From the IMG/VR virus record IMGVR_UViG_2698536560_000009, positions 1 to 25,337 of that record: a stretch of 25,337 nucleotides of DNA; one strand, given 5' to 3'. Under the pieces are notes generated by a model. It searched no databases. It was not told the origin of the DNA and was given only the letters and a program-made list of their open reading frames with translations. This document shows positions 1,963 through 18,540 of the stretch, one piece after another. The DNA comes from a virus (lineage: Duplodnaviria; Heunggongvirae; Uroviricota; Caudoviricetes). Position 1 is the first letter of the stretch. Each line of letters starts with the position of its first letter. Made by a program: the position numbers and the translations under genes.

Positions 1963-4224
1963 TTAGACGTTCCTCTGTTGGCTTTTACGTACTGCCTGAG
2001 TGATAGTATCGGCGTGTTTATCACACATACTCTGGAATTTTGAATCTGTGAGTTCTCCGGCACCCTGAATAATTAAAGGGGCATCAATTTTAATATCACC
2101 GCCTTTATCACCACCCTTATTATTCAAGTACTGTGTCAAGTCCTGGTTCAGAGATTTACCTACAACACGTTCACCTTTTTCAAGATTATATGTACCAGTC
2201 TTCGGTAGTGAGTCCCAGCCATCATGTGCCTGCCCTTCAATCTTTGTACCCTTAATCGTACTGACAATATTGGCACCTTCGGCAGCTACTTTAAGCCCTG
2301 CTGGAATCCCCATAGGCCATCCAAGTTTCATAGCCTCTGAAATACCCTGCTGAATATTGATAATAGACTGGGCAACTGCGATCCCTTTGCTCATTGCAAA
2401 TGCAGCTTTTGCCATAGCATTACTTTCACCAAATACACCTGCAAGAGTAGTACCGAGATCCTGAGCACCCGTTGCATACATAGAAAGTGTCTTTTGCTGG
2501 GCATCAATATTAGCCTGACTCATTTTGTCTGTAGTAGATTGTTGAATTGCTACCATGCGATCTTGGTAATCCTGATAACTTAATAACTTCTGTTCATACA
2601 GACTTTGATTCAGTGCTAATTCGGCCTGTCCTTCTGTTGCTAATGTATCGAGCGTGTTCTGATCGGCACTCATATTGAATGGATCTTGATTAAGTCCCAT
2701 ACGTTCGTTTTGACCTGCCAGTACTGAATTAAGGTCTTTCCCTGACATAGAACCACCAATTGCTGAAATATTCTGGGCAAGTTTAAGTGGGTCACTTTCG
2801 GTGAGCATTGAATCAACCATTTCTTTATACAGGCGTTTACGTGAATCAGTCTGCTTTCTTAATAGTTCAGTCTTTTCAGCTTCAGTTTTACCGAGAGTAG
2901 TTGCACTTGTTTTAATGCGTTGTTCTATTTCATCCTGGGTCTTATTAAATTGCTGTAGCTGGAGGGCAGCACCATTACCTGCAATACCATTCATAGTCTG
3001 TTCCAGTACTTTGGCAGCCTGAATACGATCCTTTGCGGCCTTATCACTGGCTTTTTTCGCTTCTTCCCCTGCTTTACCATCATCAAAGTTAGAACGCTCT
3101 TTTGTCGTTCCTGTATATGCCTTTGTGGTTGGTTTATAGTCTTCCTGAGAATATCCACGGGCAAGGGCAGCAAGACCACCAATACCTGGGCCTAGTGGTG
3201 AGAAAACTGCATCGGCTGCTGTCTGTACGTGTTTACGTCCTTTTGCTATTTGCTCTGGTGTAAACTCGGGTAATTCAAGGCCAATCTTTGAGCCTACATT
3301 ACGGATCATGTCATAGAATTTAATTACCTGATCGTATAACGACTGTATGATCGTATTATTTGAATCCCAGTTAAAGAATGAATTAATAAACTCAACTGCT
3401 TTTGTTTTGAGGTTGTCAAACCATTGATATATTTCCTTACAGGCTTTTACGAGTCCATTAAAAATATCAATGAGGGGTGTAACAATTTCAAATGCAAGAG
3501 TTTTCAGTCCACTACCAAGACCTGAAGTATTCTGACTTAACAGATCAAATGTTTTTGCCTGTTCATTAGTCATTGCTACGTTCTGGGCTGCAAGAGAGTT
3601 ATTAAATTCAATCTCACTGTTAAAAGAGTTGAATGTCGGTATTAGTTTTGCAGCATCACCACCGAGGGCGTTGATCATATTTGTTATTTCGGCAAGATTT
3701 GCACCATTCTTTTTCATATCAAAAAAGACTTTTGACAATGCCTGTAAACCACCATCTGCCTGTTTTAATGTCGGTATTAGGCTATTTACATCTACGCCGA
3801 ATGTTTTTAAGTCGGCACCAACACCAGAACCGTCAGCAGACGCAATACCAAGCTGGTCCATCACTGCTTCGTTAATCGAACCAACTTCTTCCATAGATAA
3901 TCCTATGGTTTTGAATGCTCCTGACCACTGCTGAAGTTGCTCGGCACTCAGTCCGGTTGTACGGGTCAATGCGTTGATCTCGTTTGCAAGACCAATTGTA
4001 TATGTAGTCAGTGCTGTAATAGCTGTAATTGCCAAGGTTGCCGCATTACCAACACCACCAAGACCAGTTGCCATTGTGCTTAGTCCACCACTAATACCAC
4101 CAAATACACCACCAGCACGATCACCAAAGTCGGCAAGTCCATTGCCAGCACTTTTTAAAGATTTTTGTAACCCAGATTCATCACCAGTGATTTCAAAAAT
4201 CATCTGTTGTTTATTCCCTGCCAT
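1963..4224 (-). CDS. tail tape measure protein
   Basis: 753 aa, Gly/Ala-rich N-terminus then long helical Q/E/K/A-rich regions typical of tape measure proteins. Lies immediately downstream of the G/GT chaperone pair; the GT stop (4226-4228) is 1 nt from its ATG (4222-4224). At roughly 0.15 nm per residue this implies a tail of about 110 nm. Confidence 0.8.
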   Translation of the reverse strand: MAGNKQQMIFEITGDESGLQKSLKSAGNGLADFGDRAGGVFGGISGGLSTMATGLGGVGNAATLAITAITALTTYTIGLANEINALTRTTGLSAEQLQQWSGAFKTIGLSMEEVGSINEAVMDQLGIASADGSGVGADLKTFGVDVNSLIPTLKQADGGLQALSKVFFDMKKNGANLAEITNMINALGGDAAKLIPTFNSFNSEIEFNNSLAAQNVAMTNEQAKTFDLLSQNTSGLGSGLKTLAFEIVTPLIDIFNGLVKACKEIYQWFDNLKTKAVEFINSFFNWDSNNTIIQSLYDQVIKFYDMIRNVGSKIGLELPEFTPEQIAKGRKHVQTAADAVFSPLGPGIGGLAALARGYSQEDYKPTTKAYTGTTKERSNFDDGKAGEEAKKASDKAAKDRIQAAKVLEQTMNGIAGNGAALQLQQFNKTQDEIEQRIKTSATTLGKTEAEKTELLRKQTDSRKRLYKEMVDSMLTESDPLKLAQNISAIGGSMSGKDLNSVLAGQNERMGLNQDPFNMSADQNTLDTLATEGQAELALNQSLYEQKLLSYQDYQDRMVAIQQSTTDKMSQANIDAQQKTLSMYATGAQDLGTTLAGVFGESNAMAKAAFAMSKGIAVAQSIINIQQGISEAMKLGWPMGIPAGLKVAAEGANIVSTIKGTKIEGQAHDGWDSLPKTGTYNLEKGERVVGKSLNQDLTQYLNNKGGDKGGDIKIDAPLIIQGAGELTDSKFQSMCDKHADTITQAVRKSQQRNV

Positions 4225-4225
4225 A

Positions 4226-4588
4226 TTATTTTCTTCCCATCCAGTTTAACATGTTAGCTCTCTGTTCTTCGGCGATCCGTTTCTCTCTCTCTTCGGCTTG
4301 TTCTTTAATGGTCTTATTGTTGATGATATTAAGAGAATCCAATTCTGTGATACTGAATTTCTTTAAGTCTTCCTTCTTAATATTCCCAGTACTGAGCCAT
4401 ATAGCCTGGAGTATTTCGGTATGTCTTACCTGTTCAATTCTGGAAGAATTTGGTTCTACAAAAGTGTCATATACAAATAGATAGATAAAAAGCGAAAAGG
4501 GCATGGTGCAGAGATCTTCCACACCACACCCTTTTGTCATCAGCATTTTTAGAGAAAGTTTAAGAAACGGATCGCCCCTTACTTTTTT
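4226..4588 (-). CDS. tail assembly chaperone -1 frameshift extension (gpT-like part of G-T fusion)
   Basis: This frame is open from 4588 down to the TAA at 4226-4228 and is the -1 frame relative to the G-like ORF. The slippery heptamer A_AAA_AAG sits at 4588..4582 on the minus strand, just before the G stop. The ORF-track Met at 4546 is internal to the extension. Confidence 0.6.
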   Translation of the reverse strand, partial: KKVRGDPFLKLSLKMLMTKGCGVEDLCTMPFSLFIYLFVYDTFVEPNSSRIEQVRHTEILQAIWLSTGNIKKEDLKKFSITELDSLNIINNKTIKEQAEEREKRIAEEQRANMLNWMGRK

Positions 4589-4869
4589 TCAATTTCTTCA
4601 ATATTCATAGCTTCGGTAAAAATACGCGTGATTTCGGTATTAAGTTTGATTTGATAAACCATGTCAATTTCGCTCTCTACCTGTTCTGGTGATTTAAAAA
4701 GTTGTTTACCATTGGCATCAACTACACAGTAATGGATTGTAGTGTACGGGTCACTACATTCACTATACTTAGAAATAGCTGGAAGACGAATATAAACAGT
4801 AAACCCCGGAGCAAGTTCAAAGGCATGTTTTTTGACACCAATTGCTGTCATTAGATTAGATAGATCCAT
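4579..4869 (-). CDS. tail assembly chaperone (gpG-like)
   Basis: 96 aa acidic ORF between the tail tube gene and the tape measure gene. Ends ...EIEKK-stop with the final codons GAA AAA AAG TAA forming a classic slippery site. Confidence 0.6.
   Translation of the reverse strand: MDLSNLMTAIGVKKHAFELAPGFTVYIRLPAISKYSECSDPYTTIHYCVVDANGKQLFKSPEQVESEIDMVYQIKLNTEITRIFTEAMNIEEIEKK
4582..4588 (-). other. programmed -1 ribosomal frameshift slippery heptamer A_AAA_AAG (G to GT)
   Basis: The minus-strand mRNA reads GAA AAA AAG UAA in the G frame. After a -1 slip it reads AAA AAA GUA AGG... into the open T frame. Confidence 0.6.
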
Positions 4870-4901: not shown

Positions 4902-5378
4902 TTATGGTTTTGCTGCAATTTCACCAACTGCTACAGGTTCGCCCGTGATTGTCATAACAAATTCACGTGTTGCTACAGCGTCAAAATCGCCACCGACAAC
5001 ATCAGAACTAATATAGCCATTAACTATCGAGTAATAACCCACTCCATCGGTATCAGCGATGTTTTCGTAATAAGTTACTTTTACCTGCATAAGCGTCTGT
5101 TTTTGAGCTGCGGTAACTAACATCTCTTGACCTACTGCCCCTGGTTTCCAGTTCACCGATAGGGTTAGATCTGGCACAGAACGAGATCCTAAAAGCTTCT
5201 GTGCGTACTGCTTACCAAATGTATTTACTGAGATAATTGTAGACTCAGCACCTGCTGCTGCCGGGAAAGCTGCAACTTCTTCAATTACTGTAAAAGTGGT
5301 TGCCTGACCACCACCTGCTGGTGCTTCTGCAATTTCTACTACAACGTTATTCGCTGCGAAAATTCGATTAAAAGCCAT
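4902..5378 (-). CDS. major tail tube protein (lambda gpV-like N-domain)
   Basis: 158 aa, immediately upstream of the chaperone genes. The pattern LTLSVNWKPG...NGY...GDFDAV..REFV resembles the gpV tube domain and is shared with the N-terminus of the 560-aa protein at 8288-9970. Confidence 0.55.
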   Translation of the reverse strand: MAFNRIFAANNVVVEIAEAPAGGGQATTFTVIEEVAAFPAAAGAESTIISVNTFGKQYAQKLLGSRSVPDLTLSVNWKPGAVGQEMLVTAAQKQTLMQVKVTYYENIADTDGVGYYSIVNGYISSDVVGGDFDAVATREFVMTITGEPVAVGEIAAKP

Positions 5379-5399: not shown

Positions 5400-5435
5400 G
5401 GGTAACGTCCTGTTACCCGTTTCCTTTTTTTATTT
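5400..5435 (+). terminator. hairpin plus T-run, oriented antisense to the late operon
   Basis: gggtaac-gtcct-gttaccc stem-loop (5400-5418) followed by gtttcctttttttattt on the plus strand. It lies between the 964-aa gene and the tail tube gene. Confidence 0.3.
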
Positions 5436-17516: not shown

Positions 17517-18293
17517 ATGACAGTCAGTACCTATCTTGAGTCTATTAAAAGCAATGCTTATCAAAGAGATATTACAATAACGAATTCAATTGCAACCATA
17601 AAAAACAGACTGAATGGTTATTTTGCTGGTGAACTTGTTAGTCATTTTGTATTTGGCTCATATTCACGTAATACAATGCTTCCTCGTAGCTATGATCCTT
17701 CTTCTGATGTTGATTATATGGTTGTATTCAAAAATGTAATATATCAGCCTCAGACCTACCTAAACAAGCTAAGGGGTTTTGTAAATTATTACTATCGTAC
17801 ATCTGAAATAAAGCAAAGCCACCCTACTATTCAATTGAACCTTAATCATATTACTTTCGAGCTTGTCCCTGCATCTCATAATATTTTATTTGGTTATCAA
17901 ATCCCTTCCAACCAGGATTTTTTGAACCGTTGGATGAATACCGATCCCAATGCGTTCAATACTGATTTAACTAATTGCAATAAAAATAATAACAATTTAA
18001 TTAAGCCTCTTATTCGCATAATGAAATATTGGAATGCCAATGCAGGTTATGTCTTTGAGTCGTATCAACTTGAAAAAGATATTGTTAGCTTTAACTATTT
18101 TTGGTGCTCTACCCTTAAAGAATATTTTTACTCTGCTGTAGAACAACTTTCAGGTTCCTATTATCTCGCACAATGGAAAAAAGATAAGATTCAGCGTCTA
18201 AAAAATTCAGTTATGATGTCAAAATATTATGAGCAGTTAAACAATCATTTTGCCGCCGAAAATGAAATAAAGAAAATTTTACCCATAAAATAA
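17517..18293 (+). CDS. SMODS / CD-NTase-like nucleotidyltransferase (Pol-beta superfamily)
   Basis: 258 aa. Carries the GS-x15-DVD signature (FGSYSRNTMLPRSYDPSSDVDYMVVF), a downstream acidic ITFELV, and a LIRIMKYW motif like the OAS/cGAS-type helix. AAGGA Shine-Dalgarno 8 nt upstream. Confidence 0.6.
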   Translation: MTVSTYLESIKSNAYQRDITITNSIATIKNRLNGYFAGELVSHFVFGSYSRNTMLPRSYDPSSDVDYMVVFKNVIYQPQTYLNKLRGFVNYYYRTSEIKQSHPTIQLNLNHITFELVPASHNILFGYQIPSNQDFLNRWMNTDPNAFNTDLTNCNKNNNNLIKPLIRIMKYWNANAGYVFESYQLEKDIVSFNYFWCSTLKEYFYSAVEQLSGSYYLAQWKKDKIQRLKNSVMMSKYYEQLNNHFAAENEIKKILPIK

Positions 18294-18298
18294 TCTTG

Positions 18299-18326
18299 CC
18301 CCCTTATATTACTAATTATAAGGGGG
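18299..18326. terminator. perfect 10-bp stem hairpin immediately after the NTase gene
   Basis: cccccttata - ttactaat - tataaggggg, starting 6 nt after the stop at 18291-18293. A U-rich tract follows on the minus-strand side, so it may act bidirectionally. Confidence 0.4.
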
Positions 18327-18540
18327 TACAGCTCATTGTCTTTGCTTGAATCCAAAAAATCATTCTCGATATTTTTACTTGTAAGAATTGAGTACAGTTG
18401 AAACATTCCACCGTCGTACAGCTAAATGAGATTGCTAAGATTGTATGACCCGCTCCTCTACCATCAGTATCAGGAGATTACATTCCCTTATCGCTAAAGA
18501 TAGCAGTTTTGTGAGAAGAGATAGTTTCCAATTTCTAATT

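Follow-up and report, generated by a model that had tools for sequence, protein, structure and literature searches.

A probable -1 frameshift at the junction of two putative tail assembly chaperone reading frames, and a conserved hairpin downstream of it, in a family of enterobacterial prophages

How the second of two overlapping tail reading frames comes to be translated is the question raised by a locus in a 25,337-nucleotide stretch of tailed-virus DNA (Caudoviricetes; IMG/VR record IMGVR_UViG_2698536560_000009), which was analysed at its full length and is called the window below. A short open reading frame (ORF) resembling the tail assembly chaperone gene G of long-tailed phages is followed by a second open stretch, the T extension, which lies in the -1 frame and ends at the tape measure gene. 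A programmed -1 frameshift, yielding G and a G-T fusion as tail assembly chaperones, is very probably the answer, as judged from the nucleotide sequences of the window and its relatives. The frameshift itself is a textbook mechanism, found here in a family in which it is not annotated; what is new is a conserved hairpin downstream of the junction, together with Yersinia relatives that carry runs of 10 to 11 A, one of them with its extension in the +1 frame.

This part of the window has all its genes on the minus strand, and their coordinates are given 5' to 3' on that strand. The G-like ORF (4869..4579) encodes a protein of 96 amino acids (11.0 kDa, pI 5.1) with the C-terminus ...IEEIEKK. The junction, read directly, is ...ATT GAA GAA ATT GAA AAA AAG TAA GGG GCG ATC CGT..., with the zero-frame codons GAA at 4590-4588, AAA at 4587-4585 and AAG at 4584-4582, the stop codon TAA at 4581-4579, and a run of seven A at 4589-4583. 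The last two G codons and the A before them (4588) form the slippery heptamer A_AAA_AAG (4588-4582) in a phase suited to tandem -1 slippage of tRNA-Lys. The zero-frame stop follows directly, a context of the kind reportedly described as 'shifty stops' by Weiss et al. in 1987. From the heptamer onwards the -1 frame is open as T (4588..4226), with 120 sense codons (4588..4229) and the stop TAA at 4228-4226. It reads AAA AAA GTA AGG GGC GAT CCG... and translates as KKVRGDPFLKL...WMGRK, so that a G-T fusion of 214 amino acids and 24.8 kDa is predicted. A single base, T4225, separates the T stop from the tape measure ATG at 4224. A TGA at 4591-4589 closes the -1 frame just 5' of the heptamer, and a -1 shift can thus give a long product only within 4588-4582, an overlap of 7 nt which the heptamer fills exactly. 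This TGA was not conserved; in the relatives the -1 frame was open for 2-17 codons upstream of the junction. The first-pass annotation, made from the window alone, had placed a frameshift site at 4579-4588, at the end of a G-like ORF finishing GAA AAA AAG TAA, with 120 open codons leading to 1 nt before the tape measure ATG. All of this was borne out, on the minus strand, and its description of the site as not novel but unusually clean was apt.

Fourteen copies of AAAAAAG were counted in the window against 9.4 expected, and at least 14 were found in 13 of 100 shuffled sequences. Enrichment of the motif is by itself no evidence; it is the context of the junction copy that is special. Five copies lie within the 15 long minus-strand ORFs; of these the junction copy alone has the phase A_AAA_AAG, and the remaining four have the phase AAA_AAA_G. 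No Shine-Dalgarno-like element was present 10-14 nt upstream of the heptamer (GCTATGAATATTGAAGAAATTG, which contains neither GGAG nor AGGA), and no stable structure was found 5-9 nt downstream of it, where stimulators of the dnaX/IS911 type lie. In the window a weak local stem (4581-4561), with three G-U pairs, immediately follows the heptamer on its 3' side. It was rejected as a stimulator because it leaves no spacer, its consensus fold begins inside the heptamer, and it shows almost no covariation: in the family alignment a change on both sides was observed at one pair only, in one sequence only.

According to the proposed mechanism, most ribosomes would stop at TAA 4581-4579 and release the 96-residue G. 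A small fraction would slip back by one base, the lysine tRNAs leaving AAA-AAG (4587-4582) and re-pairing on AAA-AAA (4588-4583). These ribosomes would then read GTA AGG GGC GAT... and produce the 214-residue G-T, ending one base ahead of the tape measure start. Slippage of a single tRNA with the stop codon in the A site is an alternative within the same mechanism. The slip would be favoured by the heptamer itself and by the slowly decoded adjacent stop, with neither a Shine-Dalgarno element nor a close stem-loop of the dnaX type; the part assigned to the stop is suggested by its conservation. A_AAA_AAG is the most shift-prone heptamer in E. coli, G_GGA_AAG is likewise shift-prone, and A_AAG alone supports low-level -1 shifting, as in IS1222 and Bacillus cdd (PMC5009743). 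By analogy with lambda gpG/gpGT, G would coat the tape measure protein, T would recruit the major tail protein, and the frequency of shifting would set the G:GT ratio. In lambda this ratio is about 30:1, and the arrangement is widely conserved across long-tailed phages (PMC5009743); by the same analogy, the shift frequency here is probably low, of a few per cent.

Protein and pattern searches returned about 66 related loci, with a readable junction in about 60. They belong to prophages and viral contigs of Escherichia, Pseudescherichia, Klebsiella, Enterobacter and Yersinia with a uniform gene order, and the host range of the family also takes in Duffyella. The junction census comprised 56 loci, and six further loci (Klebsiella, Enterobacter, Yersinia) were read separately. 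G had 96 amino acids in all 59 Enterobacteriaceae relatives that could be read through the end of the ORF, and 98-100 in the Yersinia lineage. The frame change fell at the last sense codon in every census locus (56/56), in the form ...A AAG/AAA + TAA/TGA + G; Yersinia rohdei was the sole locus with a departing junction position. The most frequent junctions were GAG GCA AAG TAA (14 loci) and GAG GCA AAG TGA (13), followed by GAG GGA AAG TAA (9), which contains lambda's G_GGA_AAG, GTA AAG TAA or TGA (7), GAA GCA AAG TAA or TGA (5), TCA AAG TAA (3) and GAA AAA AAA TAA (3). The junction of the window, GAA AAA AAG TAA, was shared within the census only by its closest relative (2 loci); prophages of Klebsiella aerogenes and Enterobacter hormaechei carried A_AAA_AAG TAA identical to it. 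The canonical heptamer claimed in the first-pass annotation is thus present and in phase in the window, but it is not the conserved feature. The conserved core of the family is A_AAG (or A_AAA) with an adjacent stop.

This stop, TAA or TGA directly after AAG or AAA, was found in all 56 census loci and also in the loci L063-L066. The -1-frame codon that overlaps it was GTA, GTG or ATA only. GTT and GTC, synonymous forms that would remove the stop, never occurred; the adjacent stop therefore appears to be under selection. Beyond the stop, the motif GCGATCC (4575-4569; columns 52-58 of alignment A2), which contains the Dam site GATC, was invariant in the 32 sequences of A2. It codes for (R/G/S)-D-P in the -1 frame, and coding constraint may suffice to explain it. 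The Klebsiella and Enterobacter relatives have GCGATTC in its place, and the Yersinia loci diverge further.

Translation of T from the junction itself was indicated by the pattern of substitution in the -1 frame. The first shifted codon was GTA or ATA, neither of them a start codon, in 38 of the 56 loci, including the window (GTA). From that codon on, the -1 peptide V/I-R-(R/S/G)-D-P-(I/F/V)-L-(K/R)-L-x-L was conserved, with synonymous turnover between AGA and AGG for Arg and among CCG, CCT and CCA for Pro. Each Leu column used four to five different Leu codons, CTN/TTR interchange included. In the closest relative (L009) the second shifted codon had changed from AGG to AGA, which is silent in the -1 frame only. 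Pairwise pN/pS over the first 12 shifted codons came to 0.39 when read as T, 0.57 when read as G and 3.9 when read in the +1 frame, values which are weak alone as the region is short; the turnover of Leu codons is the clearer signal. As most relatives have no start codon at the junction and the peptide is nevertheless conserved there, ribosomes would enter T by a frameshift at this point. The evidence for entry into the -1 frame at the junction is indirect and strong.

The first-pass annotation had also identified the pair as the G and GT chaperones, and this is supported by gene order, by a chaperone-like fold and by some 60 loci with the same arrangement. The G/T pair is placed between the major tail protein and tape measure genes, an order kept in the relatives. 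Immediately upstream of G is the major tail (tube) protein gene (5378..4902; 158 aa), which matched phrog_158 (E 3.7e-16) and, below the cutoff, the Pfam family Phage_TTP_12 of the lambda tail tube protein (E 8e-4). The tape measure gene (4224..1963; 753 aa) matched phrog_13674 over residues 11-750 (E 1.5e-56). Terminase, portal, protease-capsid fusion and head-tail connector genes lie further upstream, and ORFs for a distal tail protein, a hub-like protein and a DUF6950 protein lie downstream. An AlphaFold model of G, built with 17 homologues, had a pLDDT of 78 and a pTM of 0.69. Its top Foldseek match in the PDB was 2ob9, 'bacteriophage HK97 tail assembly chaperone' (probability 1.00, TM 0.54/0.49), and many of its matches in a viral structure library were named tail assembly chaperone. 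A profile search of PDB sequences gave only noise. Matches below threshold to Pfam Phage_TAC_13 (PF16459) were obtained from 16 of 18 members of the G family (E up to 1; best E 4.6e-4). Assignment of the 96-residue protein as a G-type chaperone is supported, to a moderate degree, by its position, size and modelled fold.

Homologues of the T part were 64-67% identical to it, with one at 55%. A blastn and tblastn search of the GenBank phage collection with the G-T-tape measure region found no relative, and the family is known only from prophages and metagenomes. The T of the window ends 1 nt ahead of the tape measure ATG (4224-4228). Most relatives have a T with 5-12 additional residues (..VKPNGTK) and a 14-nt overlap between it and the tape measure start (10359-10372 in L001/L002).

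Several observations weigh against the frameshift account or against the assignments that go with it. Production of the fusion is deduced from sequence, and some transcriptional slippage on the seven A is conceivable. The match of the G model to 2ob9 is a moderate one (Foldseek E 0.028, TM about 0.5). The window G itself fell short of the PF16459 gathering threshold (14.2 bits, E 0.059, against a cutoff of 28.8), and neither G, T nor the fusion had a significant match in PHROGs or Pfam. The model of T had a pLDDT of 55, too low for a structure search, and the T domain is defined by its position only. In 18 of the 56 relatives the first shifted codon is GTG, which overlaps the stop TGA as GTGA and has GAGG upstream. 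Coupled or independent initiation is possible in these 18 loci; it is not the general mechanism of the family.

Two other accounts of T were weighed against the -1 frameshift. By the first, RNA polymerase would slip on the seven A and add one A in some mRNAs, so that G-T would arise by normal translation. The site is indeed an A homopolymer, and longer runs occur in relatives, of eight A in three loci (L007, L036, L050) and of 10 to 11 A in the Yersinia loci L061 and L063. Bacterial RNA polymerases are known to slip on runs of about nine A or T (PMC5009743). The run of seven in the window is shorter than those known for efficient slippage, and nine or more were found only in the Yersinia relatives. 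Of the 56 relatives, 48 have only AAA-G (GCA, GTA, TCA or GGA before AAG), on which tRNA-Lys and not the polymerase is expected to slip, and a conserved A_AAG with a stop in fixed phase concerns the ribosome rather than the polymerase. As the run is below about nine and most relatives have no run, transcriptional slippage would be at most minor here, and as the main source of G-T it is very unlikely.

Among the Yersinia loci, one lineage (L063, about 1900-1932) has a run of eleven A, with T in the -1 frame. In Yersinia rohdei (L061/L062; GCA_001217805.1, about 4270-4303) the run has ten A, G continues with AAT AAG AAG before TGA, and T is in the +1 frame, which is reached more easily by an mRNA that has lost one A than by a ribosomal shift. 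Runs of 10-11 A are classic sites of transcriptional slippage, able to reach either frame. The arrangement in Yersinia rohdei is either a homopolymer assembly error or a real flip of frame.

The second account, in which T is a separate protein made by its own initiation (at ATG 4546, at GTG 4522 or at the GTGA of relatives) and no fusion is formed, is in keeping with its treatment as an ORF of its own by gene callers and RefSeq, with the 123-residue proteins called from the junction GTG in relatives and with the GAGG found 4 nt upstream of GTGA, a plausible site of coupled restart, but is highly improbable given that the junction codon is a non-start in the window and 38 of the 56 relatives, that ATG 4546 follows TTCTTAAACTTTCTCTAAAA without a Shine-Dalgarno sequence and occurs in 3 of 34 distinct sequences, that GTG 4522 is buried in the 5' arm of a hairpin of -26 kcal/mol and is GTA or TAC in several lineages, and that conservation at the protein level covers the 12-21 codons ahead of these starts, which is not expected of untranslated codons. 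Translation only from ATG 4546 had been named in the first-pass annotation as the result that would speak against a frameshift; the scarcity of this codon among relatives, and the 12 codons before it that are conserved from the first shifted codon with synonymous changes, argue against it.

The hairpin just mentioned lies within the T coding region (4535..4495) and had been missed in the first-pass annotation, which mentioned no hairpin near the junction. It begins 46-48 nt after the heptamer and in the window has an 18-bp stem and a 5-nt loop (AAAAGGGUGUGGUGUGGA-AGAUC-UCUGCACCAUGCCCUUUU), with a conserved core of 16 bp (4533-4518 paired with 4512-4497). Its energy was -26.3 kcal/mol, and no other 45-nt fold of the 25-kb window, whichever the strand, was as stable (mean -5.06, standard deviation 3.09; next best -19.3). 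Over 32 distinct relatives the core was 99.6% paired. One core pair was C-G in 18 sequences, U-A in 9, A-U in 3 and G-C in 2, and was never broken; another was A-U in 20 and G-C in 11. When Klebsiella, Enterobacter and Yersinia were added, pairing was 99% and five pairs had changed on both sides, a result matched by 1 of 500 shuffles; controls slid along the alignment were 30-62% paired in this enlarged set, and 28-63% paired over all the comparisons. The Yersinia hairpin lies at an equal distance and has a differing sequence (GGGCAUAGUUACCA...UGAUGGCUAUGCCC). Synonymous divergence was 0.13 in the hairpin and 0.36-0.54 in its flanks, and several amino-acid changes (Gly/Ser, Cys-Thr/Tyr-Ala) kept the pairing. 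No match to the hairpin or its region was found in Rfam.

Four of the 16 core pairs are G-U, and the sense fold (-24.8 kcal/mol) was more stable than the antisense fold (-15.7 kcal/mol). Because the G-U pairs make the antisense fold about 9 kcal/mol weaker, the hairpin would act as a sense-strand RNA, and a palindrome acting at the DNA level, such as a protein binding site, was rejected for the same reason. The hairpin is followed by a U-rich tract, CGCUUUUUAUC (4494..4484), which looked terminator-like in a consensus scan. Five to seven of its eight bases were U in 27 of 28 relatives, and four of eight in one Yersinia locus. The tract doubles as conserved Leu-Phe codons, which leaves the source of its constraint ambiguous.

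The leading candidate role of the hairpin, tentatively, is that of a partial intrinsic terminator with its U tail, or of a protection of the 3' end of a processed transcript, either of which is compatible with the frameshift. In this role it might, with the same reserve, lower the mRNA for T, the tape measure and the distal tail relative to that for the major tail protein and G. The stem is GC-rich and specific to the sense strand, its G-U pairs becoming mismatches on the other strand, and the U-rich tail recurs in 27 of the 28 sequences. The tail Leu codon was CTT in 30 of 34 and never CTG or CTC, in a frame whose other Leu columns use four to five codons. The position is also suitable, right after the two genes with the highest product demand, in a stretch left untranslated by about 95% or more of the ribosomes. 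Against this role, the U tract is not continuous (UUUUCGCUUUUU, GUUUUGCUUUUC), it is weak in Yersinia rohdei (UUAGCACUUUUC) and it has the coding function already described, and a terminator would be ignored if late transcription were antiterminated as it is in lambda.

It is more doubtful that the hairpin is a regulatory RNA tied to recoding, with 'A_AAG + stop + distant hairpin', in place of a heptamer, as the signal of the family and with Yersinia relying on polymerase slippage. In one version, part of the same doubtful joint reading, the hairpin would be an attenuator-type terminator or a stabiliser of the 3' end. It would form wherever the ribosomes leave the mRNA at the G stop, on roughly 95% or more of transcripts, and would be melted by shifted ribosomes only. 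Were this so, the frameshift would set not only the G:GT ratio but also the amount or survival of the tape measure and distal tail mRNA, and a change to polymerase slippage on 10-11 A, with the extension in either frame, would have taken place in the Yersinia branch.

It is unlikely that the hairpin (4535..4495) is a frameshift stimulator, the cassette then consisting of the heptamer and a distant structure. It is the strongest fold of the window, it covaries, its distance from the junction is constant in all relatives, those from Yersinia included, and it is kept also by lineages with weak slip sites such as GCA AAG. Known bacterial stimulators (dnaX and IS911, reviewed in PMC5009743), however, act about 5-9 nt downstream, at the mRNA entrance of the ribosome on the slip site, and a stem beginning 46-48 nt after the heptamer is out of reach of a ribosome sitting there; only ribosomes that have already shifted arrive at it. 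A ribosome-collision model with a distant stimulator was rejected on this last ground and on its spacing, since by our estimate a ribosome trailing one stalled at the stem would have its P site some 8-10 nt past the slip codons. Pairing of the loop GAUC with the invariant GCGAUCC after the stop, as a kissing interaction, was rejected because the loop is GAAC in most relatives. The hairpin was also considered as a means of hiding an internal start with a Shine-Dalgarno sequence (AAGGG...GTG 4522), and this was rejected because several lineages with the hairpin have GTA or TAC instead of this GTG.

An 801-nt region of the window was 100% identical to the chromosome of E. coli N61 and 98.3% identical to two more complete E. 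coli genomes. The best explanation is that the window is an Escherichia coli prophage of a siphovirus-like family of Enterobacteriaceae. In RefSeq, G, T and the tape measure are three separate hypothetical proteins and the frameshift is not annotated; T in E. coli N61 is a 98-residue 'hypothetical protein' starting from an internal GTG equivalent to 4522. The joined G-T product and the functions of the three genes can now be assigned in the records of this family, where T starts are at present arbitrary. The N61 copy of the prophage (L060 3793-4955; NZ_AP028880.1 814929-816091) has an insertion of the IS3 family in its homologue of a tail protein of about 950 residues and is otherwise identical. 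This copy is probably defective because of the insertion. The IS3-family element is itself annotated in N61 with a programmed frameshift.

Some further features of the window were recorded. Two proteins resemble tail tube proteins, one of 560 residues (9970-8288, minus strand), which has an N-terminal tube domain (phrog_158, E 1.8e-18) and a fibre-like C-terminal part, and the 158-residue major tail protein (5378-4902, minus strand). Between their genes lies that of the protein of about 950 residues (8324-5430, minus strand), which matched phrog_2871 'tail protein' (E = 0) and contained no Pfam domain, and this order of the three genes was kept in all long relatives. The ORF was listed with 964 residues from TTG 8324; the homologues have 940-951 residues and overlap the preceding stop by 1 nt, which fits a real start at ATG 8288-8286 (MKPHNIDN...). 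The short gap between this gene and that of the major tail protein holds, at 5400-5418, a perfect GC-rich hairpin of 8 bp (GGGTAACGTCCTGTTACCC); it could be a processing or termination signal bracketing a highly expressed tail tube gene. In a 613-residue ORF (12554-10713, minus strand) an N-terminal part resembling a prohead protease is fused to a major capsid domain, and relatives of this ORF match Pfam Peptidase_S78 and Phage_capsid. A long acidic repeat links the two parts, and hairpins derived from the repeat form in its DNA. The second most stable fold of the window (-19.3 kcal/mol; GCCCCCUUAUAU...AUAUAAGGGGGU) lies at 18286-18330 on the plus strand, where the ORF 17517..18293 of that strand ends; it probably serves as a terminator separating divergent blocks of genes.

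The closest known system is lambda gpG/gpGT (Levin, Hendrix and Casjens 1993; Xu, Hendrix and Duda 2004, 2013, 2014; all cited in PMC5009743). Common to both are a pair of overlapping ORFs flanked by the genes for the major tail protein and the tape measure, a second ORF that is in the -1 frame and lacks its own start, and a slip that involves tRNA-Lys on A_AAG. Neither has a close stimulatory structure, and the exact lambda site, G_GGA_AAG, recurs in nine relatives of the window. G and T of the window have, in contrast, no detectable similarity to lambda G or T. The heptamer of the window is A_AAA_AAG, its slippage window is only 7 nt, and a hairpin lies 46-48 nt downstream. The lambda shift site lies a few codons before the end of G, whereas that of the window is formed by the last two sense codons with the stop adjacent. 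Structurally, the G model is matched best by the HK97 chaperone 2ob9, at a sequence identity of 15%; no Pfam family was matched by more members of the G family than PF16459, although the window G is not a member by the curated threshold.

In E. coli dnaX, about 50% of ribosomes shift, with a Shine-Dalgarno-like stimulator 10 nt upstream of the slip site and a stem-loop about 6 nt downstream. The heptamer A_AAA_AAG of dnaX (gamma/tau) is identical to that of the window, the host genus is the same and so is the shift-prone tRNA-Lys (PMC5009743). The window differs in having neither stimulator: upstream it has GAAGAAATTG, and the conserved stem is 46-48 nt away. Since there is no Shine-Dalgarno-like element, and the only nearby stem overlaps the slip site in the consensus fold, the window is not a stimulated cassette of the dnaX type. 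A shift in the window would, moreover, give a longer product and not a shorter one.

Most relatives, with only A_AAG and a stop, resemble instead the A_AAG sites of IS1222 (G_CGA_AAG) and Bacillus subtilis cdd (A_CGA_AAG), and junctions such as GCA AAG TAA, GTA AAG TGA and TCA AAG TAA fit slippage of a single tRNA with slow decoding of the next codon (PMC5009743); the window differs from these sites in its full tandem heptamer. The family thus offers a natural series at one fixed junction, of A_AAA_AAG, A_AAA_AAA, G_GGA_AAG, bare A_AAG and runs of 10-11 A, with the stop adjacent in all but one locus (Yersinia rohdei) and the downstream hairpin common to all. Such a series could be used to measure how far the frequency of shifting depends on the 5' triplet, on the adjacent stop and on a distant structure. 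It could also show whether long A runs move the mechanism to the polymerase, and whether a structured element in a rarely translated frame controls the expression of tail genes.

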